A DNA stretch of 63,058 nucleotides, the filler included, from Bonamia ostreae (taxonomy: Eukaryota): the NCBI GenBank assembly GCA_040357525.1. It is 55 parts of 55 records of this genome, joined end to end, with 100 filler letters (N's around TTAATTAATTAA, not from the genome) between each part and the next. Parts side by side here need not be neighbours in the genome. Positions count along the whole stretch, not along the records: positions 1 to 1,055 come from JBDODL010002860.1; positions 1,156 to 2,210 come from JBDODL010002861.1; positions 2,311 to 3,365 come from JBDODL010002862.1; positions 3,466 to 4,519 come from JBDODL010002863.1; positions 4,620 to 5,673 come from JBDODL010002864.1; positions 5,774 to 6,827 come from JBDODL010002865.1; positions 6,928 to 7,981 come from JBDODL010002866.1; positions 8,082 to 9,135 come from JBDODL010002867.1; 47 more parts are not named here. One strand, given 5' to 3'. Position numbers and translations under genes: made by a program. This document shows positions 299 to 59,379 of the stretch, piece after piece. How positions within the stretch are numbered: the first letter of the stretch is position 1; every line of letters begins with the position of its first letter. Below the pieces are notes generated by a model, which saw only the letters and a program-made list of their open reading frames with translations, did not search any database and was not told where the DNA came from.

Positions 299-1055
299 TT
301 AAATCCACGGCATCCATCCTTCATACATTAAACTCAATCTCTTTTCATCAGACGCCATTTTTACCAATTTATCTACAAAATCGTTCACATTTCTTTCGCC
401 ATTAAAATTCAATTTTCTCTCGACGCGCTTCATTATATAACTCGCATAAATTCTCTCCATCTTTTTTTCCAATCTGAAACTCGTTTTAACTTTCTGTTCA
501 AAGTTTCGATTATCACCGAAAAAGACATTAGAGATGCAATCTTGTTCAGAACTGTCGACTGAATTCAATTTTTTTAGCTTTTCTACAAACAAAATTGTTT
601 CCGTCGAAAAATTTGCGTTGATTTTAATGACATTTTTGGCGGACGAGAAAAATTTTGTGATCGACTTTTTTTCTTTTTTGCCAAAAGAATAGTTCTCTGA
701 ATTGAGATGTGCTATTTTTTCGGCGTTGGTAACAAAGATTTTGAGATTTTTCTTTTTTTTCGAATTTTTTGTGAACGGAAAAAATTAGTTTTACGAATAT
801 ATTAAAATACTTTTATTGAATTGATGTAACTGATAAACGAAAAATCTTCATCGAAAATATATTTTTTGAACGACGGGAAAATGTTGCTATCCTTTGCTAT
901 CTTCAAAAATTCTGACAAAAGTTTGGAAATGTCGCCCACAATTTTCAAAATTGAAGATGTTTGTAACAGCTTTTTAAGATCTGCTAAATTTATCTCTTCA
1001 ATCTCTTTTTGCTTTTTTGTTGTGACAATAAAAATTGATGACAAAAATTGGCAGT
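299..1055 (-). CDS. SMG1: PIKK-family kinase C-terminus with FATC domain, most like SMG1 (5' partial; intron 752-810)
   Basis: Ends YASYIMKRVERKL...VNDFVDKLVKMASDEKRLSLMYEGWMPWI*, matching the SMG1-type FATC end (YA..V.KRV..KL...MYEGWTPWI). The frame is open from 751 to 299 and joins the 802..1044 ORF through a 59-nt GT-AG intron. Confidence 0.75.
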
Positions 1056-1155
1056 NNNNNNNNNNNNNNNNNNNNNNNNNNNNNNNNNNNNNNNNNNNNT
1101 TAATTAATTAANNNNNNNNNNNNNNNNNNNNNNNNNNNNNNNNNNNNNNNNNNNN
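1056..1155. other. Artificial contig linker N44-TTAATTAATTAA-N44 (first of ~54, recurring about every 1.15 kb)
   Basis: Identical 100-nt linker with six-frame stops recurs throughout; the contigs between linkers decrease from 1055 to 1042 bp. Confidence 0.99.
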
Positions 1156-2119
1156 GTATTATGGCATTAATCACTATTTGTTATCATCACTTTTCATTGA
1201 TGTTTTGGAAACAGCACAGGTAGAAAGAGAGCCCTAAAGAACAACTGAGAAACACACACTAAATCCCAAATATACTATTTACAAGATGGTTGGTATCGTT
1301 CAAACCTCGAAAACGGGATGGTCATCAGATTTTACAATGATTCAACATTCATCGTTTAAATTGTTCCAAATATGAATTACTACTTTCTTTTCATATCACT
1401 GCAAACATCGTGATGAGAAGTAGGAGGGAAAGGCAGAAGATGGGCATATATAATCACATACACTATCTATATATTCTTTATTGGGGCTGCTGCTCAAAAC
1501 GTACTTCATTTGCATTATTTTCAGAATAAAGGAAGACATTGTCAACAAAACATCATTTCGTGATCAACATCGCCCTATTCCTGGACCCGATCTCTTGGGT
1601 CAGGAAGCAGATATTTTGATGTTGGTATATATCTGAAAACATTAATGGTTATTCATAGCATGTTGCACATAATCCCGCCCAAGGGCCTTAGCCAAGGATC
1701 ACACATTTCAAAATTCTATTAGGAATGTTCATGCTCAATGTAACTATCAATCAAGTTTGCTTTCCATATATTCAGAAATTGTGAAAAATACCATATGTTC
1801 CTAGTATAATCCATATACTATTAGCGCCACTCTAAAGACCGAATCTTTGTTTGAGAGTACATGAATTTCACAATTTTTGAAGACGCATTCATTTTCAATA
1901 TAAACATATACATGGTTTGTTTCTTGGATATTCTGCAATATAGTAGAAAGTTTTCAGATATTTGATATATTTAATAAGATGATCCCTACAGCTCAGGCTT
2001 AAACTCTAAACCCCTTCCCCGGGAATCCTGAATGTTACTATTTTACTATAATCCTCAAAATCATTACGTATCTAGTTTTAAAACAATGTATTTTTACAAT
2101 AACAATGACCAGAGGACCT

Positions 2120-2210
2120 GGGCTAGAATATGTCTTCAGTACCCCTTGTTTGCCGTGTATGTAATAGACGACTAATTGGGATCTTTGGGATGATACCGCA
2201 AAACCGAGGC
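2120..2210 (+). mobile_element. Nin-domain-type SINE fragment (host)
   Basis: gctagaata..cttcagtaccccttgtttg...gacgactaa...accgcaaaaccgagg; related pieces at 48295-48345 (-) and 56183-56201 (cttgtcgtaagaggcga). Confidence 0.55.
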
Positions 2211-2949
2211 NNNNNNNNNNNNNNNNNNNNNNNNNNNNNNNNNNNNNNNNNNNNTTAATTAATTAANNNNNNNNNNNNNNNNNNNNNNNNNNNNNNNNNN
2301 NNNNNNNNNNTAACCTTACATCCGCTAAGTTAACAATGTGCATAATCCCATGATTTTAAAATTGCATATGTTTAAAAATAGCAATGGGAATAAACACGTG
2401 CTATCAACAACGTAAATGGCGGTTATTTTTTACAATTACAAGTAGAAGTGCATGAAATTCATAAAACAATCGAGTTTAGAGTTCTTGCACTACACACTCA
2501 TTAGATGATTGACATTTAGAGTCAATGCGATATTTGGGTACCCGTAAAGCGAAATATTCACTGACCCAAGTTTTTCCATACCTGTTTATCATAGACACTG
2601 ACTCCATCCTTTATGAAACGCCAAGGTCTTGTTGGGGTATTTTCTGTTCAAATAAATTGCAAATATGATAAAAATAAACCTTGTGAGACCATTTCATACC
2701 AATATATAATCCCTTACCGGAAGAACAATTCAATACAAAAATACTTATATGCATGTATAATAGCATCGGAAAAAGTGGAAAATTAATTTAAATGCTTTCG
2801 GTCACATCTATCAAAATATCCCTTTAACATGTTAACGTGTCAAACTGTTGTTTCTTTACATCAGCAAAGTGGTTTAATTGCATAGTTCACATCAGTAAGC
2901 TTGATTTCGATTTGATAAGGACTATAGTATTTTGCTAGAAAGTTCGACT

Positions 2950-3365
2950 AAGAACAGACAAACCATACGAGGACTATGTCACCTGATTTATAATGTCTGT
3001 CCCTGCCCTCGTTTTCATACCAAATTTTCATTTTGGCTTGACAGGGTGTAAACAAAACCCTTGATAGTTTTTTTTATGCCTATCCACATGGATTGTAAAG
3101 TTTCACTTTGAAATTAGATACAAAGTCTGAAATATTATGCGCGCTTTTCTGAGTCCACCACTTTTCTTTCAGCAATTTCACAGAACCTGTAAATATATGA
3201 CCAAATCCTAATTGAAAAAGGGACTGAATCCAGGAGATATCTGGGGTGCTTCTCGCAAACAAATTAAAACAAGGTGAACTCTATCATCACAGTCTCCATC
3301 ATACTGATACAATGCATTCATCATAGTTTTAAGGGCTTGGTGAAATGTTCAGAAAATGTCTGACT
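2950..3365 (-). pseudogene. Decayed Gypsy/Ty3 LTR retrotransposon integrase C-terminal region (host)
   Basis: Frameshifted segments LREAPQISPGFSPF / LGFGHIFTGSVKLLKEKW...ISDFVSNF / QAKMKIWYENEGRDRHYKSGDIVLV match the Gypsy integrase tail pattern. Confidence 0.7.
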
Positions 3366-3611
3366 NNNNNNNNNNNNNNNNNNNNNNNNNNNNNNNNNNN
3401 NNNNNNNNNTTAATTAATTAANNNNNNNNNNNNNNNNNNNNNNNNNNNNNNNNNNNNNNNNNNNNTATTGACAGAGTGCTTGTCAACACTCAGTTCAAAT
3501 CGCACTTTGTCAATCTTGAGACAAACCATTATTATTAAATTCCACTTTAATAATATTAAATTTACTATTTCAAAATATATTGCACAACATCGAAAATCCA
3601 ACCCAGCTTTA

Positions 3612-4519
3612 ATGGCAAACTCATTTGTATTTGTACCTCCAAAAGTGTTCGTTTCTCCGTACGAGTTGATCACAGTGCAAAACGCCGGAGACAATCCAAG
3701 CGACAAACCCACTTACATCAACCCCTCCGCGTTCTACAAATTTGGCGACAAGAGCCAACACGAATTCATGTCTTCCCCGGAATCCAATTCGATCGAAGAA
3801 GAAATAAACTATTCGAAAGCGGTCGCTGATTCCATCCAGAAAAAAGCCGCCGAAAATAACAAAATCGACGTCAAGCGCAACGAAATGATCAACGGAAAAG
3901 ACAAAACCGACGCCCGAAACAACCAAAACGAACCAACCCCCAAAAAGAGCGAAAACGCGAATCGGCGGAAAAACAGAAAAAGCATCAAAATCCCGAAACA
4001 AGAAATCGGCTCGAAAGGAGAAATCAGTTCAATGAGCGACCAAGACGTAAAAATCTTGCAAATTTTCGAAACTGGAAATATGTTGTTGGCTCTTCCGGTG
4101 AACATGTTTGGAGCCAAAATCATTCCTTCCGAAGGCGCCTTCACCACTTTCGCCAAGAACAACCTTCCGTTTAGTCCGCTCGGAAGGAATCCCGCGTCGC
4201 CTCTGTCGAATCAGAACGACGCCGCCGCCGCTTTTTATGGCCAATTTAAAAACCGCTTTTTCCCGAACAGTCAAAAAACACCCGCTTCGCCTGTTTCGCA
4301 GCTGAAAAACCTCGGACAGTACACTTCGAATTTGACTGTGCGAATTCCGACTTCGCCGCTGAGTCAGTTAGCGCAAAGTCCGTCTCCGCCGGCAGAAAAA
4401 ACTGCACCGAGCTTTAAGCCAGGTGCCAAAGTCGGTTTGGCCGGGAAAAGTACGGTTCCGCCCGGCGCCCGAAATATCTTCAGAGAAACTTTCAAACCAC
4501 GCACCAAAATTCCGGCGAC
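3612..4519 (+). CDS. Hypothetical low-complexity Ser/Pro/Asn-rich protein, 3' partial (microbe)
   Basis: About 300 open codons from ATG 3612; higher GC than host contigs; repeated ASPLS/ASPVS/TSPLS motifs. Confidence 0.7.
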
Positions 4520-4621
4520 NNNNNNNNNNNNNNNNNNNNNNNNNNNNNNNNNNNNNNNNNNNNTTAATTAATTAANNNNNNNNNNNNNNNNNNNNNNNNN
4601 NNNNNNNNNNNNNNNNNNNAA

Positions 4622-5565
4622 ATGCGCCAATCCCTCATCGTCCTCACGCAGCGCCTCGAATCCGAAATGCACCAAAACCACTCCAACGCCGTCAACTACC
4701 GCAAGCGCATCGAAGACCTCACCAGCCGCAACAACATGATGGAGTTCAACTTCAAAGGACTGCAGAAGAAGATTATGCTGCAGACGCGCAAGCGAGAAAC
4801 CAAAGACGGCGCCGCGCCCGACGGTGAAGTTCTGGAGAAGAGGAAGCGAAAGTTGGAGTCGACCAGACTTGAGCTGGACGAAGTCAGGAAGAAGTACCAG
4901 CGAGTTCTGGGCGAGAACCGACATCTGAAGATGGCCGGAGACAAGTGGAAGCACAAAGGAGGAGCGATCGAAAAGCCATCAGTGGCCACGCTGGAGAAGG
5001 AAATAGTGATTGCGAAGACGCTGATCGAGCAGATAATGGTCTTGAAGAACCACCAAAACATTTTGTGTCTCAACGATTCCAAAAACCTGTTTGTTTTTAA
5101 CAAAAAAGAGACTCGCCGCTGATCAAACCGGACATAACCAACATTTTCCAGCGGCTCAGAAAATGCTGCGGCCAACTCGAAAATAATTTGGGCGACGAGA
5201 AGACGGTGGAAATGTTTTTGAGCAGGAGCGAAGACGACTTTGCGAAGGAGACGCCCAAAGACGGCTTTGTTTTTTATTTGATCTCTCTTCAATAACAGAC
5301 GGTGAGCCAGATTTTGGACAAAAGAGTGTCTCCGGAGGGGAAGACGCAGTTCTACGTTTGCTGTCCAGTCAATCCAGTTTTAGCGCGGGAAGCGGTTTTG
5401 AGTGGAGCGGGACCATCTCCGGTGTCGATCGAAGAAGGGAGCGATCCGGGCGCGTTGTGCGAACGCGTTTGGGTGGACGAGCAGAGTTTGGTCGGTTGCG
5501 AAACTTTGATTGAAAAGTTTCGCAGCGCTCGGTCGATCGAAGGGGCTGTTGAGACGAAGGAGTAA
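4622..5565 (+). CDS. Coiled-coil protein with C-terminal chromodomain (introns 5089-5108 and 5269-5298; possibly 5' partial)
   Basis: Removing 20-nt and 30-nt GT-AG introns gives one ORF ending FTVSQILDKRVSPEGKTQFYV...RVWVDEQSLVGCETLIEKFR, the chromodomain pattern with an insertion. Confidence 0.75.
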
Positions 5566-5959
5566 ATGTTGATTGAAAAAGATTTTTTTTGTGATTTTTT
5601 TGTGATTTTTTTGCAATTTTTTGTAGTTTTTTTGCGATTTTTTTTTTGTGATTTTTTAATTTTTTGTAGTTTTNNNNNNNNNNNNNNNNNNNNNNNNNNN
5701 NNNNNNNNNNNNNNNNNTTAATTAATTAANNNNNNNNNNNNNNNNNNNNNNNNNNNNNNNNNNNNNNNNNNNNTACAAGATAGTCTTATAACAATATCGA
5801 TTCCTCGTATGACAAAGACCACGTTAAACAGTTTGAACTCATAATCAAACATCCTGGATGATAGATAATCTATGTCATCTTATAAGAAGGTAGGTCAGTC
5901 AGGTATGCAAATCATCAGACGTCTCTATAAAGTCGGCTACGTAGCGCTGAATTTCCCGG

Positions 5960-6290
5960 GAGTTAATGAACCCGGAATACCCCCTGGGGCTAACTCTACT
6001 TGTTGAAATCTGTCATTGCCACACGATACCCTTCGGACAACGTTTAAATTCTGCACTTAATGACCCCGGAACACCCCCGGGCAAAACTCAATATCTTCAA
6101 TGTGATATGTCGCACGCTACCCTTTGGACAACTTTTTAATTTTGCCCCTAATGACCTCGGAACACCCCCGGGTCGAACGCTGCTCGTCGAGACCTTCAAT
6201 TTGATATGTCACAGGATATCCTTTGGGCATTTTTTTTTATTTTGCACTTAATGACCCCGAAACACCAAAATTCAAAACGTGGTCTATACT
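5960..6290. repeat. Degenerate ~90-100 bp tandem repeat (host)
   Basis: Four copies of ttaatgacccc(g)gaacaccccc(g)gg near 5963, 6057, 6148 and 6249. Confidence 0.7.
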
Positions 6291-6927
6291 GACCCACTTT
6301 ACTACTCTGGGATTCCAGAAAATACTATGTTGTAGTTTCTCGGTCATTGATCGGACCTTGAGATCTGTCACGGAGCTTTTGCAATTTTTCGTCAGTCCCT
6401 TTCATTTTTTTCAGTTCTTCTGTTATCTCATTTGTGAGTCTCAGTGACTGGATGCACAGGTCTAAGCTTAGGAATGTATCAATTCATTAATCTAAATAGT
6501 TTGCAGATAATTTGATTCCAAATCATTTTCAATGATATGACCAAAATTATTTTGAGAACACTAACCAACATTCCTTGCGTGTTTTATTTTATTTTTTGGT
6601 TTATTGGGCGATCAGAACTGTTGTTATCGGCGACAACACATGGTTGTCAGAGGCAATTCGGGCAATCTGTAAATACATGTAATGATTGATAAGGAATTGC
6701 ATGTAGAACAGTAGACACGAAAGCTGGTGTTATACTACGACACGACCTTTGTAATTGTCTGAGTCACAAATTCCAACCACCATAAGCTAATCCAGAAAGC
6801 TTGACTCGCCGCTAATTTGTCCGGGGANNNNNNNNNNNNNNNNNNNNNNNNNNNNNNNNNNNNNNNNNNNNTTAATTAATTAANNNNNNNNNNNNNNNNN
6901 NNNNNNNNNNNNNNNNNNNNNNNNNNN

Positions 6928-7869
6928 TACAAAAACAGTGAATTTTTAAAATCAAAATTTGGCAAAATATTGTAAGATAAAATGGTTAACATTATTAGTC
7001 TTAACAAATTTCATTTTGATGGAAATGTCATCGTCGACGTTTTCGATCGAAAAGTTTTTAAGAAAAATTTGAATATTCTAAAAATTAGAAAATTTAACCA
7101 AAATGACCAAATCTTCGTTGCTTCCCCCAGATTCAAATATCTTATCTTGCCAATAATAGCCAAAAGGCGATTTTTCCTCTGAAACTAAAATTATGTTTTT
7201 GTCTTTATTATAGCGACTGTATCCAAAATAAACGCTCGAGTTCCAATTTCTAAGTTTTTCGCCATTTTTTGATATTACTATTTTTCATGCAAAATTTACT
7301 TTTATTGTTGATTTAAAGTTTAAATTAAAATTGTTAAAATTATAATTTTTAAATTTGCATTTATCTTTAAAATTGGTTATTTGATGTAAACCAGAAAGAT
7401 CGACGCCAAAGTCAAATCTAAACTGCGCATTTTGAGATTTTATTTTGAATGAATCGATGAATCCATTTAATTCGAAAAACCGGTTATTCAAATTTACAGA
7501 AAATTTCTTTTTAAAATTTTGTTAATTTAATTCGCAAATTTCAAGTTTTGTCAAATTTACCTTATTCCAAACAGCCATCGCGCCATTTTTGTCTATTTTA
7601 ATTTGATCCAAATTTTCAGTAGAACGCCTCAGAGATCGTTCGAAGGAGCTGAGAATGAGACTGATTATGAAAATAACATAAGAGACAAATATCAGATTTT
7701 TCATGCTTGCAGCACTCAAAATCTCAAGACGGATTATAGGATATTTCTTCAAATTCCGCCCGACCTGTTTTTCTTCGGGGAAATTGAATGAATGAAAAAA
7801 TTGAGCTGTGTGAGAGGCGTACGACTTGGCCGTGTTTATCCATCTAAAGTTTTCGTCTTCTTCCGACAT
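6928..7869 (-). CDS. Multi-exon hypothetical membrane protein, 3' partial (microbe); weak TMEM181/Wntless-like N-terminus
   Basis: ORF 7869-7522 has IRLEILS followed by a hydrophobic segment (LIFVSYVIFIISLIL), then a GT donor and further open exons. Confidence 0.4.
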
Positions 7870-10800: not shown

Positions 10801-11339
10801 CACAGCAAGAGATGGGGTAGGGATCTATCCCTTCTCCCCTCTCTCTTCCCCACTTTGATGGACAATATACTTTACCCGTCCTTTTTTCTATTTTTGCATG
10901 TATATACTTTTATGTATTAAATTCAAAGTTTGATTTACCGGCTGGTAACTTCCATCCCAATAGTAATTTGGGGTAACTTTGCAATGAAGTCTACCATCAA
11001 CAAATCATACGTCATGTGCTCGTATCAGTATGCAAATGGATATCACCTAAGCGTTATACAGGTAAATTGAACACAAACTACACCGCATAGACTTATAGAT
11101 TTGCAATGATTGCGAACATTCATTCAAGCACAAAAACCATTTAAATACCAGACACCAGAAACCAAGTCGTCTTTATTCATTGTCAAAAAGCAAATTAAAA
11201 TAAGGGTAATCTAAATCACTACATCGTGCATAAAAAGGAAGGCGGACCAAACAAGAAAAATTGTCCAGTAAACGTAAAACAAAACATTCAAACCAGCCAC
11301 TGAAAAATGACGCTCAGCTGCAGAGGACTGTGAGGGGTG

Positions 11340-11442
11340 GGTACAGACATATTGAGGTGACCACATACCTCGAGAGGTGGGCATAGACCTAGAGGGATGG
11401 ACACGAACCTGTTGAGATGGACACAGACCTAGAGAGATGGAC
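11340..11442. repeat. ~20-bp tandem repeat at contig end
   Basis: Repeated ggacacagacctagagagat-like units. Confidence 0.75.
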
Positions 11443-12697: not shown

Positions 12698-12793
12698 AAC
12701 ATCGTCACAGTTCGTAACTCTATCAGCGACTGGAAGCTAGCAGATAATGTTCGCCGACTTCCAAGGTGTGTTCCAAATAATCGAATTTGTTAA
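12698..12793 (+). CDS. 3' end of a gene ending in a CCP/sushi-like W...LPRCVP motif (5' partial)
   Basis: NIVTVRNSISDWKLADNVRRLPRCVPNNRIC*. Confidence 0.4.
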   Translation, partial: NIVTVRNSISDWKLADNVRRLPRCVPNNRIC

Positions 12794-13117: not shown

Positions 13118-13692
13118 ATGCTGTTATTTATAGTTTGCATCTCGACAATATGGTCCATTGACGCTCCTGGTTTGAAACTTAATCTGTGTAGCCGCTTTCC
13201 CCGGACCATGCAGCGTTCCTCCTCACGGCAACGGATTCAAAACGGTTCTTTTTGAATCCGGGAAAGGAGCACTCGTCACCTGTGACGAGAACCAAGGCAG
13301 TTACATAAAAACGCCCGGGCCAGACGACAATTCGTACGGCAAAAAACATTTCGCCAGTTATGTCTGCAAATACGATTCCTGGTTCGACGTGGATTCGGAA
13401 TACTCGAGCAAACGGTTGATGTGCATGCAGGGATGCCCTCATTTACCGCGCAGCGACTTCTTGCACGCTTTTTCGGAAGAAGGCGATTGCACTCTTTTGA
13501 ACGAAAAAGACTCAACTGCGCCTCCTTCGTACGAGACTTGTATCTTTAAGTGCATGCCGGGTTACTTTTCGAACGCGAAAGCAAAAAACCACATGAGTTC
13601 GTCTAAAATGTATTGCAAGGAACTGTACGGAAAGCCTTATTGGCCAATAAAAGACGGTTATGATTTGGAGCCATTTGTGCATTGCACTGAAG
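13118..13692 (+). CDS. Secreted Cys-rich protein with two CCP/sushi-like modules (intron 13170-13191; 3' partial)
   Basis: Signal-peptide-like MLLFIVCISTIWS, a 22-nt intron, then CSVPPHGNG..G...C...C...W...C and CPHLP...CIFKCMPGY...C...W...C; phase-1 GT donor at 13693. Confidence 0.7.
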
Positions 13693-13848
13693 GTTTAAAA
13701 TTGAACTTATTGTAATAATAAGTTCAACATTGTTTTTTCGCAAAAATTNNNNNNNNNNNNNNNNNNNNNNNNNNNNNNNNNNNNNNNNNNNNTTAATTAA
13801 TTAANNNNNNNNNNNNNNNNNNNNNNNNNNNNNNNNNNNNNNNNNNNN

Positions 13849-25714: not shown

Positions 25715-26409
25715 TTAACTCTGATAAGAGAAGTTGTCTAAGTGATTGTTTTTCAGCGACATATCCGACACAAACGAATCAGCGACCGGTTCCATCGTGA
25801 ACTCGGCGTCAAAATTGGACGTGTCGGTTGTTTGTTTGCGGGTGGCGGGGACATAAGGCGGCCTCAGCTTCTTCTTCAACATCATCTCCCAATTGACGTC
25901 CTTGAAAAATTCGTGCGACATTATTTCTTCTGCGTCGCTGGGCCCGGAGCCGAGCCTGTTTTTGGGGTCTTTCTCGACCAAACGGCTTATCAGATCCTTC
26001 GCTACTTTCGAGAGGAACTTGGGATATTTGACCTCCGCGCTTTGGATCATCTTGTACATCTCGTTGGTGTCTTTGTTGTAGAAAGGAGGGTACCCGACCA
26101 TCGTCTCGTAAACGAGAATGCCGAGGCTCCACCAGTCGACCGATTTTGTGTAATTTTGGCGTTCGATTATTTCGGGGGCTTTTGTTGTCAGAAAAAAACC
26201 AAGATATTCGGGAGTGCCGCAGAAGGTGCTGGCTTCGTTGTCTTCGATTTGGTCGAAAATCTTGGAAAGACCAAAATCGGTGAGGCAAATGTAGCCGTGT
26301 TCGTCCAGTAAGATGTTTTCCGGTTTCAGGTCTCGATAGAATACCCCGTTTTTGTGGAGATGGCCAAGTGCCAAAAGTGTTTGGGCGATAATGAATTCTT
26401 TACAGATTT
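25715..26409 (-). CDS. AGC-family Ser/Thr kinase (PKB/SGK/S6K-like), 5' partial; intron 26179-26199
   Basis: YRDLKPEN, DFG, TFCGTPEYL^APE after removing a 21-nt intron, DWWSLG, and an AGC tail with NFD.EFT and hydrophobic motif LDNFSY. Confidence 0.95.
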
Positions 26410-26788: not shown

Positions 26789-27558
26789 TTAAAATACTTT
26801 AATGTACTCGTTGATCCAACAATATCTAGAAAAGAGCACGTAAAGTTTCCTGTACCAACTAAACTGGCTGTTATGAATTCTCATCGACAGAGCGCAGTCT
26901 TTTACGCCATTAAATACAAAAAAATCACTAAACTTTATAAAATAACGTAAAATTGTCTTCATCGAAATTCCAAAGTTTGCTCAAAATAGTAAAAGGAAAT
27001 TCAATGAAGAAAATGTATTTTTGCAGTGAATTTACGGTTTTTAACTTGAAAAGCGAGACCTTGTTTTCTACAAAAAAGTCACTTTTGCTACATATATTGT
27101 CGCAAAGCAAAACCTTATAGCTTTAAAGATATCAATATGGTTGGGATGATTGGAAACGCCATTTTCGTCAAAAGTTATAACCTTAAAAATTAGTAAATTT
27201 ACATTTTTAATGCCATTTTTAGTAATATAGTCTTCTACTGTTTTTCTGATTTTCGAGTGCGGCCATTTTTCTTTTAAACCGTCCACAAAATAGTTGGTTT
27301 CGCTTATTTTTAGTTTTGAAATTCCCAAAAATTCGGCTGATGAAACCAGCTCGTTCGTTCTAACACCATCCTTCCCGCCTTTTGATAGACAAAGCAGGTG
27401 AATTTTTAGTTTGGGGTTGAGCGATTTTATCGTCGGAAGAAAAAACATTGTCTTTTATGTTGCGAAAAACCTCGTCGTCTGGATGAGCAGTGACCAATAA
27501 AATATTTGTTTTCATTTCGGTTGTGGCGAATTGTATGTTGATTGTTAAATAAGTGACG
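26789..27558 (-). CDS. PIGL: N-acetylglucosaminyl-phosphatidylinositol de-N-acetylase (PIG-L/GPI12), 5' partial; introns 27452-27470, 27182-27202, 27088-27113 and 26928-26946
   Basis: Spliced product has AHPDDE^TMFF, VITFDENGVSNHPNH, LKTVNSLQKY and SMRIHNSQFSWYRKLYVLFSRY. Confidence 0.92.
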
Positions 27559-33398: not shown

Positions 33399-34425
33399 CG
33401 GAGGGAGCTGGCTCGACGATCTGCACATGATCGACGTGGCAGACTCGAAAAAGCCGTGTGACCGAGCGAAGCCACTCGTTTGGCAGCGCCCCGAAGCCAA
33501 AGGGACCGCGCCCTGCGCGCGGGCAGCGGCGACGGCCGTTTCGATGGACAACATGATTTTCTATTTTGGAGGCAACAACGGAGTCAAGTTCTTCAACGAT
33601 GTCCACGTGCTCGACGTCGGTGCGTAAATTTTAGACTTTTAGAGAAAATGGAATGGCGGTGCGTCAGAACTAAAGGGACGGCGCCGTCTCCGAGAGCAGG
33701 CCACACCGCGACGCTAATGCAGAACGACAGAATGGTCGTCTTCGGAGGCGGCGTGGCCGACGGTTATTCGAACGACATTTTCGTTCTGAATTTAGGTTTG
33801 ATAGCTAATCGACGCAGAGACGGCGACATGGACGAAACCGAAAATAATCGGCACTGCGCCGTGCCCGAGAGCCGGGCATACCGCAATGCCGATTTTAAAC
33901 AGGACGGCAATGCTGGTTTTCGGAGGGGGGTTTAGCCAGAAGGTCTACGGCGATTTGCACCTTTTCGACATCGAAATGGGGAAATGGACGAGACCTTCGG
34001 ACGCGGGATATTTGCCACAAGCGCGAGCTGGCCACTCGTGCGTGACAATGTCCAACATAGCTTATTTTTTCGGAGGGGCGGACGGGGACAGCCATGTTTT
34101 CAACGACGTGTATTCGCTGGACACCGCATTTCTTCTGTTGAAGAATTTGGCGCCGTCGTCGGTCGGGTTCGAGTTGTATGAAAACAAATTTGTTGATTTA
34201 AATTTGGTGGAGAAACTGGAATCGAAGATCAGTAGTTTGGCTCTAAAAACCAGAAAATCGCATAACAACGCAATCCAGAATTTGAAGGAGTTATTGAGAA
34301 TAGAAGAGAACAGTAGAAAGAAGAACGAGAAAAAATTTAGGGAGCTTAAAGCTGATTTGGCCGTTTTGAGGAAGAATTTTTTAGAGTCTGAGAAACCGGC
34401 GAAAGATAGAAGGAATAAATTTTAA
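33399..34425 (+). CDS. Kelch-repeat protein with C-terminal coiled coil, 5' partial; introns 33620-33642 and 33796-33817
   Basis: Repeated G.AP.PRAGH...FGG...NDV..LD units restored in frame by 23-nt and 22-nt introns. Confidence 0.92.
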
Positions 34426-38193: not shown

Positions 38194-38980
38194 CTAATGC
38201 TCTATTATTGGAACGGGACGCATTTGATCGGATGCGCTTTTTTAGACCTGCAATTTTTCTCGACAAGAATAGTTTCGCTCAGAAACTATCTGCTTGTCGG
38301 AGACGCTTACCGATGCATTTACTTGTTACTTTGGGAGCCCCAAACAAGGCAACTTTTGATGATGAGCAGAGATGCTTCAAAGCAAAATGTCACCTCCGCC
38401 GAATTTCTGATCAACAAATCGAGCATCGCTTTCTTTACTTCAGACGGCGATCGCAATTTAAAGATTTTGAACTACGACCCGAAAAGTTTCTAAACGACAT
38501 TTCAAAATGTAAATTGTTTAAAAGACCCGAAAAATCGCGGAGGAAAAAGTTTGGAACAAATAGCGCACTTCCGCTCTGGTCACTTTATCACGAAAAGTGT
38601 TATGTTGAAAGCCAAAAAATCGGAAAAGAAATTTTTTGTGCTCTCCGGTAACATTTTAAAACGATAAAGGTTCCGTCGATGGATCGTTTGTGGTGACAGT
38701 GCCACTCGAAGAAAAGATATTTCGTCGTCTTAAATCTCTGGGAACTATAATGACATATTACTTGGAACACAATGGTGGAACGAATCCTCGAATGTTTAGA
38801 AAATCGGTTCATGACGGCCATTCCAATTACCAAAATTTTTTTATCGATGGCGATTTGGTGGATAAATATCGCCATTTAGACATGTACCGTCAAATCGAAC
38901 TCGCTAGAAAAGTCAAAAGCAGTCGAAAAGAAATTTTGGAGAAATTGAGATTTATTGGTGAATTGACGAGATTTTCATGA
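38194..38980 (+). CDS. CPSF1: Cleavage and polyadenylation specificity factor subunit 1 (CPSF160) C-terminus; introns 38486-38524 and 38648-38669
   Basis: LIGCAFLD..LRNYLLVGDAYRCIYLL..SRD..SAEFLI..SDGDRNL..YDP; GSVDGS; GTNPRMFR; IDGDLV. Confidence 0.92.
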
Positions 38981-40279: not shown

Positions 40280-40417
40280 AAGACGTTTGACTTGAACGAA
40301 GAATATTTTAGAAAAGTGTATCCTCGCTGGGACGAATGGAAAAAGCACAAAAAGACAATGGATCCGCACGCGTTGTTTGAGAACAACTGGGCAAGAAGAA
40401 TTTTCGAGCGCCATTAG
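40280..40417 (+). CDS. C-terminus of an ALO/GULO-type FAD-linked sugar-lactone oxidase (5' partial)
   Basis: KTFDLNEEYFRKVYPRWDEWKKHKKTMDPHALFENNWARRIF fits the ALO C-terminal YP.......DP..LF.N....R.F pattern; not in the ORF track. Confidence 0.65.
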   Translation, partial: KTFDLNEEYFRKVYPRWDEWKKHKKTMDPHALFENNWARRIFERH

Positions 40418-44937: not shown

Positions 44938-45580
44938 ATGACATTGAAAAACTACTTAAAACCAGCCAAAGTTCATCGAGAGCGAGCACAGCCAAAACAT
45001 CGAAGAAATTTTGGATTTTTAGAGAAAAAGAAAGATTACAAAAAGAGAGCGAAAAATCACAATTTCAAGAAAGACCATTTGGCGTTGTTGCAGCGGAAAG
45101 CGGAAAACAGGAATCCAGACGAATTCTATTTTTCGATGGTGAAAAGCACTTTCAGCAAAAGCGGTCACATTAGAAACAAAAAATTATTGGAACCGAAAGA
45201 GGTTTTGGCGATGGTCGAAGAGGATATAAAATATTTGGAGTTCCATCTCAATATCGAAAACAATGTTTAAAATTTGCTTTTTTATTTCAAAATTTTCTTT
45301 TCCGATAAAAATTCAAATTCAGAAAATCGAAAAACTGCAAAACGAAAATGCCGTTTTCAGATTTGACGATTCTCCAAATAATAAAGTCGATCAAAGCGAA
45401 AACAAAAAGTCTTTTTTGCAACAGAAAATGGAAAAAAGGAACAAAATCCAAAAATTGCTCAAAAAATTAAAACTGAAGCGCTGTGCAATGGTTTTCAACC
45501 ACAAAATTTAGCTTCCGGGAAGAAAACAGAAAGTCGGAGACGGCAAAAGATTTTGCTTTGACAAAATTAGAAATAAATAA
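44938..45580 (+). CDS. UTP11: U3 snoRNP-associated protein Utp11; introns 45265-45322 and 45491-45511
   Basis: HRERAQP..R..FGFLEKKKDY..RA...KAENRNPDEFYFSM; spliced C-terminus ...RFCFDKIRNK*. Confidence 0.92.
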
Positions 45581-45591
45581 ATTTTGATTTT

Positions 45592-51900: not shown

Positions 51901-53022
51901 TGAATTCATCAGGTCACCACTATTCGGTGTTTGAAGTGCGTAATGAATCTCGTGATCTGCGATAATTGGACAGCGATGTCAAAATCTGGGGGGGGGGGGG
52001 GGTTATTTTAAATGTATGTCATCAAATAAACCTTTGTCGTCCTTCAATGATAAGGTAGCAATTATCCTCAATTGGGATGGTCTATAAATAGAGATGATAG
52101 AAGATAGGACTTTTGCACATCAACTACAGTAACTACTAGTGTACTACTTGAGAAAGATGTCAATGAATTTCAAGTGTTAAAAAAGAACCCTTTTAAGCAT
52201 TTCGAGAGTATCAGTACTTTCTTTTAGGATGTTAGCATTTGTCTTCTAATCATATTCCATATGCGTTCAGTAGAAAAAAAGCATGCATACAAGTTGCATG
52301 CATTTTAAAATCACCAAGTTGTATATACAATGAATGAATGAGAAATACAAATTTGAAAGATATTTCAAATAAACTCAATGGTCCATATATATTACATATT
52401 TTCTTTTCCTTTTTTGTGTCTTTTATTTACTGCAAAAAAATGAAACATCTGTAAAAAAAAAATAAAATAATAAAATCAAATTTACCTTTTCAGGAATACC
52501 ATTTTCACTGCACTTAGCGTTGTGAACATTTCATTTATATCGATAGGTCTACAGTCTTTTCTATAACTTTCCAGAACGCTTTTCACTCCACATAAAGCAT
52601 GTTCCGAGACATACCATTGCGCAAGGGTTCACTACCGGGAATCGACAAGGCTTTTCTTTAACTCTTTTCATGCTACCTAAAGTTATTGACATACGCATTG
52701 ACAAGCGCAAACATTACAACAAATATGGACTATAAATAACGAATCCATACTTCACTACACTTTGTACCTANNNNNNNNNNNNNNNNNNNNNNNNNNNNNN
52801 NNNNNNNNNNNNNNTTAATTAATTAANNNNNNNNNNNNNNNNNNNNNNNNNNNNNNNNNNNNNNNNNNNNAAAGTTTTTGCTGTTCACAAAATTAAAATG
52901 GCAATAATTCACTATTTTCTTACAAATGTGAAATTTTAGTTAATACCAATTTGAACTTCTCATTGTTCATTAAAGTTTTCGAATATAATGTTATCGATAA
53001 TAAGCTCCGCCGTTCACCGAAA

Positions 53023-53535
53023 TTAAATGGCGAACAAAAAAATTGGATTGGACAGAATAAAAACACTGAAGGCAACTGCTCCTTCGGGCAAAACAGGGCC
53101 ATCCGCGAGCGGGTCCGGCTTAAAGCCAAGTCCCATCGTCGGATCCCGCCCTTCTTTTTCTTCGCCGGGCGCGAAAGCGCGCTCGATCTCAAATTTCTCG
53201 AGGGCTTGCGCCTCAACGAGAAAATGTCTGTTCGAGACGCCTTTGATCGCGTTTTCTCTCATTATCTTTTCGCGCTTCCGAAGAGCGCGTTTTTCCAGTT
53301 CAACGGCATCGACTGGATCGTTGTCGTTTGCCGCTCTGTTGTACCAATAGACATCTCTGTCTTTCTGCCAGCGGCCATACGGCGCCCGGACAGTGCTTCC
53401 CAGATAATAGGACCTTTCTCTCGTGGCTTTGACGTCTTGCCACGAGAACTGGTCTGTTCCGCCGCGGACGCCGGGGCGAACATCGTACGGCATTCCTGGG
53501 AGACCTTCCTGTGGTTTTTTGGAAGGATAGACCAT
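53023..53535 (-). CDS. MMTAG2: MMTAG2/C1orf35-family protein (3' end probably interrupted by an intron)
   Basis: RPGVRGGTDQFSWQDVK...YLGSTVRAPYGRWQKDRDVYWY matches the conserved N-terminal block. Confidence 0.85.
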   Translation of the reverse strand: MVYPSKKPQEGLPGMPYDVRPGVRGGTDQFSWQDVKATRERSYYLGSTVRAPYGRWQKDRDVYWYNRAANDNDPVDAVELEKRALRKREKIMRENAIKGVSNRHFLVEAQALEKFEIERAFAPGEEKEGRDPTMGLGFKPDPLADGPVLPEGAVAFSVFILSNPIFLFAI

Positions 53536-53594
53536 TTTAATATAGTTCGATAATGTTCGAGCTTAAATATATTTTTTTATTGTGTAAACGATAT
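53536..53594. promoter_or_regulatory. 59-bp bidirectional intergenic/promoter region
   Basis: Divergent ATGs at 53535 (-) and 53595 (+). Confidence 0.5.
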
Positions 53595-53906
53595 ATGGTA
53601 GAAAAGACGATAAGCTTTAAAAATTATGTGCCATCGAAGGAGAGTCTAAGAGAGGACGAAAATGGAAGCAAAGCGAAGACGGTTTTGAGTACAGAAACGG
53701 TTGAAATTCCGCAAAAAAATAAAATCGAAAACTTTGAGGATTTGTTCAGAACTGCGGAAGAAGAATCGGAAAACATAAGAATTGTTCCGAAAAAAGCGAA
53801 TTGGGATTTGAAAGAAGAACTTTTGGAACAATTTGAAGAATTGGAAAATAGATCTAATTTGATTCTCGAGGAACTTAGAGGTTTCGACATAATAGTCTGT
53901 TTGTAA
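53595..53906 (+). CDS. CCDC12: Cwf18/CCDC12 splicing factor (last codons probably intronic)
   Basis: ISFKNYVP.KE.L and IVPKKANWDLK...LENRS motifs. Confidence 0.8.
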   Translation: MVEKTISFKNYVPSKESLREDENGSKAKTVLSTETVEIPQKNKIENFEDLFRTAEEESENIRIVPKKANWDLKEELLEQFEELENRSNLILEELRGFDIIVCL

Positions 53907-54267
53907 TTTTCAATNNNNNNNNNNNNNNNNNNNNNNNNNNNNNNNNNNNNNNNNNNNNTTAATTAATTAANNNNNNNNNNNNNNNNNNNNNNNNNNNNNN
54001 NNNNNNNNNNNNNNTTTACGGGATTTTTTCGGATTTTTATTTTATTTTTTGTAAATTTTACAGATTTTTTTCGGATTTTTATTTTCGGATTTTCATTTTA
54101 TTTGTAAAAATTTTTCGTATTTTCATTTATTCGTAAAAATAAAAATATTTTATTCGGATTTTCATTTTGTTAATTTTTCGTAAATAATTTTTTCTAAAAT
54201 TTCTAAAAATTGTAAATTTCAAAATTTCGCAAAAATCGAAAAAACAATTAGGAAAAAACAAACAGAA

Positions 54268-55058
54268 ATGCTGGAACATTTGAAAACGAACGGACGTTTG
54301 TCCACTAAACGCCTCGAAAGTCTCAAAACAGTCAACGAAGATTACAACAAATCGTTCATTCTGATTTCTTCGTTTTGTATTTACAAAAATAACAAGAATG
54401 GCAGAATCGCTGGGATCGTCAATGGACATGAGCGAATTCGCGCTCAAATCTGCCGAAACTTGCGATGAAATTTTAATGCAATTGTGGAAAGAAATTACTG
54501 GCGACGTCAAAGAAAACCTCTTCGAAGACGAAGAAACGAGAGCTTTTTACGAAGATTTTGCCAATCTGGAAATGTACGTCAAAAGAATCGACAAAAAAGA
54601 AACGGAGAAAAGCGAAGAGAAAATGGCGGAAGAAAAGTTAAAATTGGAAGCGCTGAGAAAACATTTGGGCATTTACGACCAAACTGAAGAACCTCCGAAA
54701 GAAAAGCTTAGCGGAATTTCTTTGTTATTGAGCGATCTTGGAAATGGTCTTTAACGATTAGAAACTTTAAAATAAAAGTAATTAGAAAATGGAAAGCTAA
54801 AATTTAATAAAAGCGAACAACAAGGCGAAGATAGATTCAATAGCGGAGAGATTTTGCGCGTTAAATAATTTGGACGCGCAAATTCAATTGATGGGAAAAA
54901 TTTTAAAAGTGAGAAAAGACAAATTGGGACAGATTTTGTTTTATTGCAGATTGATTGCGACGCTTTCCAAGTTTTTCAAAGATTTTGAGAAGCGAATTGT
55001 CGAAGTTCTCGAAAAGCAATTTTACGGAATGTTCTTTGCAAAAGATAAAGTTTTTTCG
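54268..55058 (+). CDS. UPF2: Nonsense-mediated decay factor UPF2, internal fragment; introns 54372-54396 and 54747-54813
   Basis: LFEDEETRAFYEDF..L matches the UPF2 EDE..R.FYE motif; MIF4G-2 IDSIAERFCALN...FYCRLIATL. Confidence 0.85.
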
Positions 55059-55789
55059 NNNNNNNNNNNNNNNNNNNNNNNNNNNNNNNNNNNNNNNNNN
55101 NNTTAATTAATTAANNNNNNNNNNNNNNNNNNNNNNNNNNNNNNNNNNNNNNNNNNNNGTGTGTCGAGAGGCCAATGTTTTCTCTACTCATGTTGTATTC
55201 TTTATGGTAATTATGCTACTCGTTATTTTCAGTTTTTCATACAAGAACAACTTTTCTAGCATAAGACGGCGAAATTTCCGATTTGAAAAAACAAAAGAAA
55301 ATAACAATGTCTACAGTATTTATTTATTAATTAACCTTTCATGATAATCCGCCTTCCAATTTATCGTACTTCAATTTTACTCCGGAAACCACGCACGTCC
55401 TTGTATCAGGTCCCGTGTATCATTTGTGCATTGACAACAAACATCCTTAGCGACAGTACTTTCATTAAAGAGAAAGAGTTTTTAAAAGTTGTAATGGTGT
55501 TCTACCCCAAAGTTGTAATGGCGTTCTACCCCTCCCCCATAATTTTGCAAAATATCTAAACGGCAACATCTGCTCACTTGAGTGGCGACTCTATAATGTG
55601 ATCATTGCTTTTTACTTGTATATAAGGATAATTATTTAGTTTTTGCATGTGTGTATTTAAAGAAACGCTGACTTTTGTTATCAAGGTAAAAGTTTAAATC
55701 AGCATATATTCAAATTATCCATGCATATTTGATGTCCCTCTTATTGATAGTGGAGGTTCCATTTGAAAAATTTGAATTGAATTAATGTG

Positions 55790-56030
55790 AACCTTATTGT
55801 CTGTTTTCGTAGGGTAAAACTTTATCAAATGAGACATCGGCAATTATTGGTTTTTGGTATGGATGATGTCCATGGTTACATTTCCGCCTTTGTGTATTGC
55901 CAAAAAGGATCAGCAAACCAACGCTATTTTTATGTGTACTAATCAGATTTCCCATACATATGTTGTAGTTGCATCCATATGGAAATGCAGTGTCTAGTGC
56001 CTTGATCCAGCAATCTCGTTTTCTACTAAA
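55790..56030 (-). mobile_element. Decayed Penelope-like element (region following the GIY-YIG domain) (host)
   Basis: RKRDCWIKALDTAFPYGCNYNI..GNL resembles the WI..L.T..PYG.N tail of PLE endonucleases. Confidence 0.55.
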
Positions 56031-56301
56031 CAATAGTACGTCAAACTGAACTGTCAACGTGATGATTAATCTTCTCTAGAATTCTGACAGTCATGGAATG
56101 GTTTTGGCAAGTGAAATGTTTATAAAGAGGATGATACCTTCAATAAATTAATTTAGACGCTACTATACACAAAGCATAATTGTGCTTGTCGTAAGAGGCG
56201 ANNNNNNNNNNNNNNNNNNNNNNNNNNNNNNNNNNNNNNNNNNNNTTAATTAATTAANNNNNNNNNNNNNNNNNNNNNNNNNNNNNNNNNNNNNNNNNNN
56301 N

Positions 56302-57309
56302 AATCCGAAGAATAGAAAAGCTGTTAAAGATGGTGATAATGTTTAACAACAAAATAACATAATAGATTAAAAACGATCATACCGCAGCAAATTTCTCTTC
56401 CGGAAGACAAAACGACTTTATCTTTTTCGACCTTTCGGACGAACGTCTCATAATGGATCTTTTGTGATGTTTTTAAACTTTGATGTTTCTTTTGTTTATT
56501 TCTTTTATCGTGTGTTCCTTCAGATGTTCCTTGAACATTGGCAAAATCGTTTTAGCCGCTTCGATCTTAATTATTACAATATCGTAAAATAAAAAATGCA
56601 ACTCCAAAAAATTTTTTGACAAAATTGTTAAAACAATGTGGATATTGAGGTACTTTTCGAACCCGGGGAAAAGTCTGTGCGCATCTCGCTTTACAAAATC
56701 ATATAATTCCGCAGCGAACTCGATGTTCGCTGGGCCTGCGCCGACAATGACGATCGTCAGCAATTTTCTTTTCGTGTCGTCGTCAAGGTTCGGAATGCCT
56801 TTTGTGACGAAAATAACATGCCATTTCAAAAATTTCGCTCAAGCGATTTCTTATTCTGCGCGCGTCGGACAGTTGTTTAAGGAAATAACTGTTTTCTTTG
56901 GCTCCGTCGATATTGAACGTGTTCGCTTCCGCGCCGCAAGCGATGACCAAATCGTCAAACTTTACGGATATTTTGGTGTCGGGGACGTTTTTGTTGGCGC
57001 ATTCGATCGTCCGCGAATCCGCGTCTACAGACTTGCAGGAAGCTTGTATATATTTGATGTTTTTAATGCGCCGCGCGGATTCGATTATATTTCGGAACTC
57101 CAAAGTGCCCACTGTAGTCGTAGACAACAAAGGAGTGAACAGAAAATGGTTCCTCGGTGAGACCATCGTCACTTCGCAAATCTTCTTGTTTAGTCTTCTG
57201 GCCAAACTGTAACTAAAAATGAGGTCTAAAACCCGGCCCATCCGCTGCCTAAAATGACCACCTTGCGGCGACCGGAAGGTAATCCAGATGAAAATAGGGC
57301 ATCAAACAT
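56302..57309 (-). CDS. Type II (alternative) NADH:quinone oxidoreductase, 3' partial; introns 57213-57232, 56799-56817, 56566-56634 and 56459-56478
   Basis: KVVILGSGWAG^YSL, VSPRNHFLFTPLLSTTTVGTLEFRNIIE, FDDLVIACGAEANTFNIDG, FLKQLSDARRIR and IVIVGAGPANIEFAAEL. Confidence 0.95.
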
Positions 57310-57444
57310 ACTAAATTTAGTGTTTTTGTTTTGCAGCTTTGATANNNNNNNNNNNNNNNNNNNNNNNNNNNNNNNNNNNNNNNNNNNNTTAATTAATTAA
57401 NNNNNNNNNNNNNNNNNNNNNNNNNNNNNNNNNNNNNNNNNNNN

Positions 57445-57680
57445 AATTTAAATCGAAAATTCGAAAATAAAATTTGAAAAAAAATAAAATAATTTCAAAA
57501 TCGAAAATAAAATTGAATAAAATAACAATTTCAAATCAAAAATTCGAAAATAAAATTTGAAAAAAATAATTTCAAATTCGAAAATAAAATTGAAAAAAAA
57601 CAATTTAAATCGAAAATTCGAAAATAAAATTTGAAAAAAAATAATTTCAAAATCGAAAATAAAATTGAAAAAAATTAAAA
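57445..57680. repeat. A-rich minisatellite
   Basis: Repeated aaattcgaaaataaaatttgaaaaaaa units. Confidence 0.85.
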
Positions 57681-57760
57681 TTTCCAATTTCCTAAATAAA
57701 GAAAATCAAACATCTCAAACAACCAAAAAATGGCCAAAAATTCTAATTCTCGTCTACAAA

Positions 57761-58487
57761 ATGAGCCAAAAACATCAAATCGATTCTTTAAACTTCATTT
57801 TGTCTCGTTTAATCAAAACGACTTCGGAAATAATTCTTCAAAACAAAAACTTGCCGCCTTCCGAACTTCCCAACGAAGGCTTCTTCCTTAAAATGCTCGA
57901 AAATTTTCTTTATCACAAGAGCCACGATTGTGTAGCTGTAACAATGAACTGTTTGATGCAACAGTTCATCCAGAACAAAGAGATAAATCAAGCGCATTGG
58001 CTCAGAACAGCCACAAAATTTCCGTTCGACGAAAACGTCGAACAAAATTCGATCATTTTACATCGCTTTTTAAATGCCAAAATCGATGCGCTTCTCGGCG
58101 ATTATAAAAGCGCCCTTAAAAGTATCAATATAGCCATTTCAAAAAGTCCGAAATTAAATTTTACGAAAGTCGGAGAAAATTTGGAAGACAAATTGGACGA
58201 AAGCTTTAAAACTAAAAATCAACCAAATTTGGGGAAAGCGATAAATCGATCAAAATCTGACGGAATGAAGCCGTCATCAAGAAATATTGACGAATTGATA
58301 GAAAAGCTTTTGAAACTGAGATCGATTCTAAAGTTTCTGAACGGAGATTTTAGCCAAAATTTGTTTGAAGGATATTTCGATAAAAACGATTTGGGAAAAT
58401 TTAGAGCTTATTCGGACCTTCTAAATGTCGTAAAATCTGGAAATTCTGAGGAATTTGAGATTGTTCTGGAGGCGAATAAGGATGTCT
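57761..58487 (+). CDS. RPN3: Divergent 26S proteasome lid subunit Rpn3/PSMD3-like PCI protein, partial
   Basis: AVTMNCLMQQFI...QA....TKFP....NS....RFLNAKIDALLGDYKSA...IAISKSP and AYSDLLNVVKSGNSEEFE align by eye with Rpn3. Confidence 0.65.
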
Positions 58488-58760
58488 NNNNNNNNNNNNN
58501 NNNNNNNNNNNNNNNNNNNNNNNNNNNNNNNTTAATTAATTAANNNNNNNNNNNNNNNNNNNNNNNNNNNNNNNNNNNNNNNNNNNNTTTATGACGAAAA
58601 TTTGTCGACTTTTTTTTATCAAAATTCGATCAATTTTTATGACGAAAATTTGTCGACTTTTTTTTATCAAAATTTGGTTAATTTTAATGACGAAATTTTG
58701 TCGAATTTTTGTCAAAATTCGATCAGAATGATAACAATTTAATATTGAAACCGTTTAAAG

Positions 58761-59379
58761 ATAATCGCTTTAATGATGGATATTATAAAATTGGCATTGA
58801 AACCGCTAAAAATTATTTACAAAAAATATTTGAAAATCGATTCGTTTTTCAAATATTGCATTTGCGTTTTTCGAGATCTATTTCGAGGCCGCAGAAGAAA
58901 TGTTTTGAGTGGTCGTTTTGATTATCTTCCACATCAAATTGATCAATTCATTGTTTTATATTCAACTTTTATCAATTTTTTCGTTAATTCGATAAAACTA
59001 AATTTGAAATTTTATAAATTTGGTCAATTTTAATAAATAGCTCGGAACAGTATTTTTATCATTGACGATATTTATATATCCTACAATATTCATATACAAA
59101 CTAATACTTGGATTTTTATATTTATTCAGTCTGTCGATAAATGTGTCAATGTTATTTTTACATAACATTTTATTGAAAATCGACATGTTCGCCGTTATTG
59201 CCACTATTTTTAACAAAAATTGGGATTTCGAAGATTGCAGCAATTTCTTTCTCACCTTCGACTTCGAAGAAAACTACCGAAATTCTAAAGTTTATCATTT
59301 GGAACTTCGAAGGTCAATCGATTATTTTAAAATTCTGAAATATTTGTTGCCATCGAAAAGTGATTTTACGAATTTGTGA
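58761..59379 (+). CDS. PIGQ: GPI-GlcNAc transferase subunit Q (PIG-Q/GPI1) C-terminus; intron 58953-59040
   Basis: LFRGRRRNVLSGRFD....IDQFI^LGTVFLSLTIFIYPT matches the GPI1 motif LFRGKK.NVLR.R.D....DQL..GT......FL.PT. Confidence 0.85.

Follow-up and report, generated by a model that had tools for sequence, protein, structure and literature searches.

Introns of Bonamia ostreae, as read in a stretch of 63,058 nucleotides (assembly GCA_040357525.1; the window, meaning the whole stretch of DNA that was analysed) and in further contigs, begin with GTT far more often than with the standard GTRAG, and the genome carries two genes for the U1 small nuclear RNA (snRNA), one with the canonical 5' end and one with a 5' end complementary to the dominant donor. 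The GTT-type donor signal is real. The introns are probably of the ordinary U2 type with GT-AG ends, for the most part 19-23 nt in length, and removed by a re-tuned major spliceosome, and a mechanism in which two versions of U1 serve two donor classes is, as a whole, favoured with some reserve. At about even chances stands the more specific reading, that two U1 small nuclear ribonucleoproteins of differing specificity (a derived one for GUUU and an ancestral one for GUAA) are combined with a fixed substitution at the U2AF1 hotspot, which would set the rule for the −3 base genome-wide.

The window consists of 55 contigs of about 1,045 nt each, joined by spacers of the form N-TTAATTAATTAA-N. Composition separates about 17 of the 55, which are CpG-rich, TpA-poor and gene-dense and are taken as parasite-type, from the remaining 38 or so, which are mostly non-coding and animal-like, one of them with a C1q domain; the donor result concerns the former only. 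The gene-dense composition is common to the 60 longest G000 contigs, and an exon from one of these matches a protein labelled as B. ostreae (P0008) with 100% identity. The gene-dense window contigs appear to belong to the same organism as those long contigs, as judged by composition and intron style rather than by a direct match. As the majority of contigs in the size class of the window are animal-like, gene or repeat counts on the assembly combine two organisms.

Two genome-wide intron sets were compiled. The prior-free set was obtained from 60 contigs with a self-trained gene finder that allowed only GT..AG ends and lengths of 14-70 nt, introns between well-scoring exons being retained. The length-prior set was drawn from 74 long contigs with a coding model devoid of site weights, introns longer than 32 nt, weak genes and exons shorter than 36 nt being dropped. 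Both sets cover GT..AG introns only. In the prior-free set, 87 of 135 introns are 19-23 nt long, as compared to 12/87, 12/98 and 16/106 for three decoy dinucleotide pairs; among its 108 introns of up to 30 nt, the donor is GTT in 95 and GTTT in 63. The 230 short introns of the length-prior set start with GTT in 200 cases (GTTT in 145), with GTA in 22 and with GTRAG in one. The GTT share of ~87% compares with a background of 0.447 for T after GT (p = 1e-40).

Splicing itself was followed on a contig of the genome outside the window (L026), to which the runs X1, X2 and X3 were aligned; X1 consists of assembled contigs that are presumed to represent RNA. X1 yields eight splice junctions on this contig (four intron-sized gaps and four joints), GT..AG being readable in all eight, and X2 and X3 yield zero. 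The junction donors are GTTT in five cases and GTTC, GTTG and GTAA in one each, and the acceptors AAG in five, TAG in two and CAG in one. The original prediction, that GTTT and GTT donors take the place of GTRAG, is hence borne out by the 200 of 230 finder calls and by seven of the eight spliced junctions, none of which shows GTRAG. Five of the X1 introns measure 18-31 nt, two 73 nt and one 323 nt, so that long introns exist and the finder mis-set some of them; a long call at 6340-6391 is contradicted by an RNA joint at 6350-6422. Two of the nine loose ends listed fit additional GTTT introns, and the short prior-free calls touched by X1 are consistent with it in three of three cases, two through loose ends and one through the record start alone. 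For PP4, the gene model after splicing is identical to the deposited protein of 304 aa, and its alignment to the PP4 of Acanthamoeba is free of gaps.

The donors of the 230-intron set fall into two classes. Of the 22 GTA donors, 21 continue as GTAA and none as GTAT, and the 200 GTT donors continue with T in 145 and with A in 13. This coupling of +3 and +4 (A after GTA in 21/22 versus A after GTT in 13/200) is significant by Fisher's test (p = 1e-19) and also against the AA rate inside introns (p = 4e-6), and all eight GTA donors of the prior-free set are GTAA. The GTAA class amounts to ~9% of the donors, and X1 shows the splicing of one such intron. Coupling of GTA to A and of GTT to T is the pattern expected from two readers whose facing bases are UU and AA. 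Furthermore, GTTTT is followed by G in 25 of 75 cases against a background of 0.21 (p = 0.01), and G is the partner of the next C of the variant U1. That the GTAA calls are a stop-codon artefact is unlikely, as the GTR introns are in phase 0 in 16 of 26 cases and one GTAA intron is spliced.

The variant U1 gene (G000:C1288, L078) matches the U1 family (RF00003) with 47.4 bits (E 3.7e-9). It displays the U1 architecture of four stem-loops, U1-70K loop, U1A loop and Sm site, with a single change in loop II (AUGGCAC), and its minimum-energy fold reproduces the complete U1 structure and leaves an Sm-like site unpaired (z −3.27; none of 200 shuffles equally stable). Its 5' end before the first helix reads UGCAAAACAUC, where the standard of the Rfam consensus is AUACUUACCUG; the canonical ACUUAC is absent and CAAAAC stands in register, its AAAAC being complementary to GUUUU. 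The canonical copy (G000:C414, L127), which is interrupted by the contig end, has the 5' end AAACUUACCUG with a perfect ACUUACCUG, a canonical loop II, paired stems and a 17-nt insertion that folds as a UUCG hairpin. An unaided alignment of the two copies places AAA opposite CUU, with A7, C8 and U10 kept; the bases facing G+1, U+2 and A−2 are shared, and those facing +3 to +5, −1 and −3 differ. An altered U1 pairing sequence had been foreseen, and it exists in a more complex arrangement than proposed, the altered gene standing beside a canonical one.

The motif TCCCATAAATTT..TATA lies upstream of both U1 copies and of U4, U5, U3 and RNase P. Its distance to the 5' end is 56-58 nt for U4, U3 and the canonical U1, and the AAAAC of the variant begins at 58. 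The promoter layout, TCCCATAAA with TATA ~27-29 nt downstream (L078, L079, L095, L101, L102 and L127), resembles the upstream sequence element plus TATA of plants. A genome search with the motif gave 34 matches, including U3, RNase P and the canonical U1. The U1 family search had missed the truncated canonical copy, which came to light through the promoter motif alone, so that more truncated copies may exist; used as a DNA query, this copy matched only itself, and a loop-I pattern search gave nine matches, the two U1 copies and seven others. Both copies lie on parasite-type contigs, and the canonical one adjoins genes with GTT introns. A host origin of either copy is rejected by the promoter motif, the composition and the neighbouring genes. 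The identity of the variant as U11 was also rejected, as a scan against all Rfam families gives U1 and RTATCC donors number 0 of 230, no search having been aimed at U11/U12. An RNase P-like promoter motif at L035:6916 onward (G000:C34) precedes a stretch of higher GC content that matches no Rfam family at E 2 and is possibly a non-coding RNA.

On the acceptor side, the 230 introns end in AAG (93), TAG (75), CAG (58) and GAG (4). The AAG share is at background (p = 0.74 against genomic NAG and p = 0.17 against the A content of introns), and GAG is depleted (4/230, p = 3e-6); the A-rich acceptor is base composition together with the exclusion of G, and the actual rule is 'not GAG'. The AAAG acceptor consensus suggested at the outset is therefore retained in part: A does occur at −3 and the preference for a pyrimidine there is lost, but the AAG share is ~40% and not 54%, is not enriched over background, and A is not selected, composition governing the position apart from the exclusion of G. 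A pyrimidine tract with Y at −3 was not found in these introns, C+T being 0.58-0.61 close to the 3' end as compared to 0.55 within introns. As to the branch-like motifs noticed near the 3' end, the GTT introns show A at 0.65 at −8 and 0.52 at −7, and YTRAY matches place the putative branch A at −7 to −9 in 33 of 62.

A loss of U2AF, also suggested, did not hold, since U2AF35, two U2AF65-like loci and SF1 are all present. The search for U2AF35 gave 26 CCCH matches, of which those on nine contigs were read, and the gene was located at G000:C6198, the only locus returned by a self-search. Its N-terminal CCCH finger and the start of its UHM match S. pombe U2AF23 over 73 residues (E 6e-22). Alignment to S. 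pombe U2AF23 and its S34Y mutant (PDB 7c08) places Leu at position 34, where 48 U2AF35 homologues have Ser (34), Thr (13) or Gln (1), and in this one key residue the suggested divergence of U2AF is found. As described in passages of PMC7505975, Ser34 hydrogen-bonds U−3, and S34F/Y mutants show little discrimination at −3 except that they reject guanosine. Leu34 may thus explain the −3 pattern, in which A, C and U are tolerated and G is rejected; a short spacing of branch point and AG could yield an equal tolerance. U2AF65 is represented with RRM2 and UHM (E 1e-44). Each of the two U2AF65-like loci, L148 (G000:C5771) and L153 (G000:C938), has a C-terminal UHM, and a duplication like that of Fritillaria is possible.

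In the mechanism proposed, the U1 gene would have been duplicated and the recognition end of one copy changed from ACUUAC to CAAAAC. The variant would retain the partners of G+1 and U+2 (C and A) and gain pairing to U+3, U+4 and U+5, and would in this way read the GUUU(U) majority (GUU in ~87% of donors), while the retained canonical U1 would read the GUAA minority (~9%), both RNAs being presumably expressed. The computed pairing of the variant end with GTAA donors, at a mean of −0.2 to −0.4 kcal/mol, is hardly any. With the branch A 7-9 nt before the AG, there would be no space for a pyrimidine tract, and U2AF35 with Leu34 would no longer select U at −3 and would exclude only G, the −3 base then following composition.

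Several observations weigh against this mechanism. The duplex with GTTT donors is −2.8 kcal/mol for the canonical end and −2.2 or −3.3 kcal/mol for the variant, depending on its start, so that the variant is favoured on these donors only with a start two bases further upstream; for the 55 GTT[A/C/G] donors it is the canonical end that forms the better duplex (−3.5 versus −1.1 or −1.8 kcal/mol), and U stands at +5 in just 92 of 200 GTT donors. The GTAA donors have a +5 G in one of 21, though the canonical U1 pairs with +5 G, and their excess of G at −1 is weak (13/21 versus 78/200, p = 0.06) and absent from the prior-free set (3/8 versus 42/98). The score of the variant is below the Rfam gathering score of 69.5. 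The canonical copy reaches only 23.5 bits with a fold z of +0.94, its Sm site and stem-loop 4 fall past the contig end, and its U1-70K loop reads GAUCAACAAU. On the acceptor side, AAG at background makes a special reader unnecessary, and Leu is not aromatic, so that the stacking seen for Tyr34 need not hold for it. U6 has not been seen.

Some of these points lend themselves to a single co-evolved U1 as in Entamoeba, a rather unlikely explanation under which the AAAAC copy alone is functional, its canonical counterpart is a relic in decay, and the GTAA introns are ancestral leftovers spliced via other contacts. The canonical copy is indeed truncated in the assembly, with an altered U1-70K loop and the 17-nt insertion, the GTAA donors lack the +5 G, and U1-70K and U1-C have one clear match each. 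This copy nevertheless retains a promoter motif that is intact and correctly spaced, the perfect 5' end, paired stems and an insertion shaped as a UUCG hairpin, and the GTAA donors would be left with the near-absent pairing of the variant end. The opposite explanation, less probable still, is that the canonical U1 does everything through exon-side and GU pairing with the help of proteins, as reported for yeasts, Giardia and Trichomonas, the AAAAC copy being minor or silent; the U-rich donors would then stem from U6, from a protein preference or from intron size. Its computed duplexes with GTT donors equal or beat those of the 8-nt variant end, U1-C, Luc7 and U1-70K are present, and, according to a passage of bioRxiv 10.1101/2022.06.08.495308, most lineages with atypical donors retain a standard U1. 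However, the three bases changed in the variant complement the dominant donor exactly and in register, the variant is a complete and well-folded copy, and one reader leaves the absence of GTAT unexplained.

That runs of T and A in an AT-rich sequence generate the GTTT..AAG calls is very improbable. Genome-wide, T follows 45% of GT dinucleotides, some of the longer calls are contradicted by RNA joints, and the AAG frequency equals background; but GTT donors reach 87% against those 45%, the decoy lengths are flat, and spliced contigs, homology gaps and the PP4 model agree with the calls. As an explanation of the donors the artefact is refuted, and for A at −3 it stands.

As to other components of the spliceosome, U4 (94.4 bits) and U5 (68.2 bits) were found, together with a weak U2 candidate (21 bits) that has the canonical branch-pairing sequence GUAGUA and no promoter motif. 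This candidate (L062:368-514, minus strand) has a 2-nt insertion before the branch-pairing region and GCC rather than GCU in helix Ib, and may be a pseudogene or a misassembly. For U5 (L079:336-366, minus strand), the promoter spacing implies a possible 5' extension of ~30 nt with a small hairpin. U6 was not found by family searches at E 0.001 and E 10 (48 of 1323 candidates scored), motif searches, Rfam scans of the matches or promoter-motif searches, and an intron-tolerant search gave one unconvincing match; in a fragmented assembly this failure says nothing on a loss of U6. Genes for U1-70K, U1-C, Luc7, METTL16 and SF1 are present. Loss of METTL16 as the cause of U at +4 was rejected, as the gene is there. 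In supplement 1 of PMC11069148, a 'U1 snRNA binding' orthogroup is listed among the gains of B. ostreae (uncorrected p = 0.012, not significant after correction) and also of M6MM, and may indicate a duplicated U1 protein.

Within the window, homology places several introns on the minus strand. An AKT/SGK-like kinase gene contains a 21-nt intron (GTTTTT..AAG, 26179..26199), in frame and stop-free, which appears as an exact 7-residue insertion in GTPEYL|APE as compared to AKT2. The type II NADH dehydrogenase (NDH2) gene on contig 50 was aligned with a profile of 40 NADH dehydrogenase homologues, which places four introns of 20, 19, 69 and 20 nt: GTTTTA..TAG at 57213..57232, GTTATT..AAG at 56799..56817, GTTTTA..AAG at 56566..56634 and GTTTAA..AAG at 56459..56478. 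All four start with GTT and three end in AAG. A site-free run reproduces them as an equal-length gap offset by 1 nt, a 19-nt gap offset by 2 nt, a removal of 41+28 = 69 nt (its maximum being 45 nt) and a 20-nt gap offset by 4 nt, respectively. In a PIG-L gene, the PIG-L match restarts at profile position 12 directly after a 19-nt intron (GTTTTT..AAG, 27452..27470) read from the sequence. The introns at 26179-26199, 56799-56817 and 27452-27470 are the three that were quoted in the original prediction. A candidate of 79 nt in a FATC-domain gene (GTTACA..AAG, 752..830, minus strand) comes from hand reading, with a FATC match in the downstream frame and no such call by the finder.

The plus-strand introns of the window are predicted. 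A CPSF160-like gene has a 22-nt intron of the minority GTAA class (GTAACA..AAG, 38648..38669), with CPSF_A matches on both sides, and a 39-nt one (GTTTCT..AAG, 38486..38524). Gene-finder predictions further include a 20-nt intron at 5089..5108 (GTTTGT..AAG), a 30-nt intron at 5269..5298 (GTTTTT..CAG) followed by a weak chromodomain match, a 22-nt intron at 13170..13191 (GTTTGA..TAG) and a 25-nt intron at 54372..54396 (GTTTTG..AAG). A kelch gene has a predicted 23-nt intron outside both donor classes (GTGCGT..TAG, 33620..33642) and a 22-nt one with ambiguous boundaries (GTTTGA..CAG, 33796..33817), for which a second finder pass chose 33783-33804. A 21-nt intron in Utp11 (GTTTTC..TAG, 45491..45511) is predicted only by the model with trained site weights. 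A conservative finder pass over the window gave 12 introns, nine with GTT (six GTTT) and six with AAG, and at least two of the 12 look wrong.

Other features of the sampled contigs were recorded. Long open frames without a Pfam match occupy 59814-60758 and 60874-61625 of the window (minus strand) on contigs of neither clear class. At 53023-53906, MMtag and cwf18 genes stand head to head with ~60 nt between them, and the end of an ALO-domain gene (40280-40417, plus strand) converges on that of a MORN-repeat gene (40466 onward, minus strand) across a gap of ~50 nt. A search for the nuclear small-subunit (SSU) rRNA found none, the match obtained being mitochondrial; L021 (G000:C7503) is AT-rich and carries SSU rRNA, tRNA and large-subunit rRNA of mitochondrial type.

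No account of Bonamia donors or snRNAs was found in the literature searched, subscription papers being outside its scope. The introns of B. ostreae are called canonical in a passage of the comparative paper PMC11069148, and the text of PMC9329632 contains neither 'intron' nor 'splic'. What is new here is a U1 gene pair that matches two donor classes and a U2AF35 with Leu34. At issue is how an invariant pair of snRNA and splice site can change while thousands of introns remain functional; Entamoeba, with one changed U1, shows an end state. If the proposed mechanism is true, the parasite offers a natural snapshot of a splice code being rewritten through U1 duplication, and a genome with an old and a new U1 and matching intron classes would show a route that is testable in related haplosporidians. 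A natural change of U2AF1 Ser34 accompanied by the −3 pattern of the cancer mutants in vitro would likewise let evolution test that mechanism. Gene prediction in this parasite calls for donor models trained on the species itself, and in-frame introns of 21 nt (such as that of the AKT/SGK-like kinase) are easily overlooked.

Human variant U1 snRNAs are encoded by sequence-variant genes beside the canonical U1 and are minor species not known to match the dominant donor class, whereas the Bonamia variant matches the majority class. The U2AF1 S34F/Y cancer mutants, as presented in passages of PMC7505975, resemble Bonamia in the loss of Ser34 and in the tolerance of A, C and U at −3 with rejection of G; the Bonamia residue is a natural, non-aromatic Leu in the one U2AF35 copy found, with a putative effect. 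The sections of PMC13326754 that deal with Fritillaria borealis describe two U1 versions, as in Bonamia, and duplicated, divergent U2AF subunits that relax the recognition of the 3' end; its U1 versions, however, have identical 5' ends, and the authors say that U1 divergence is not its route. Fritillaria introns escape GT-AG, whereas the Bonamia introns found are GT-AG, other ends not having been searched for. Mikrocytos mackini, as outlined in PMC10245619, is also an ascetosporean parasite with very short introns (16-17 nt), but has 224 introns and a reduced spliceosome in which only U2, U4 and U6 were identified; Bonamia has far more introns, and U1 and U1 proteins are present. Physarum polycephalum, according to one sentence of bioRxiv 10.1101/2022.06.08.495308, likewise combines U1 candidates of the standard and of an altered kind in its genome, and differs in that its change, ACAUAC for GUAUGU, is mentioned there without data; no follow-up on these variants was found in the literature searched. 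Passages of the same work by Roy and Bowser describe GUUUGU donors and a co-evolved U1 with ACAAAC in Entamoeba, and ACGUAC in Mastigamoeba. As in Entamoeba, U at +3 and +4 is matched in Bonamia by a change of UU to AA at the 5' end of U1, and the altered U1 is complementary to the dominant donor. Entamoeba is described with one U1 candidate per species, a low intron density and a near-universal donor that keeps the +5 G. In the unrelated rhizarian Bonamia, by contrast, the +5 partner is also changed (C to A) and the donors are loose after +4; a single U1 with uniform donors is not what its genome displays, as the canonical U1 and the GTAA class are both kept, giving two U1 genes and two donor classes.

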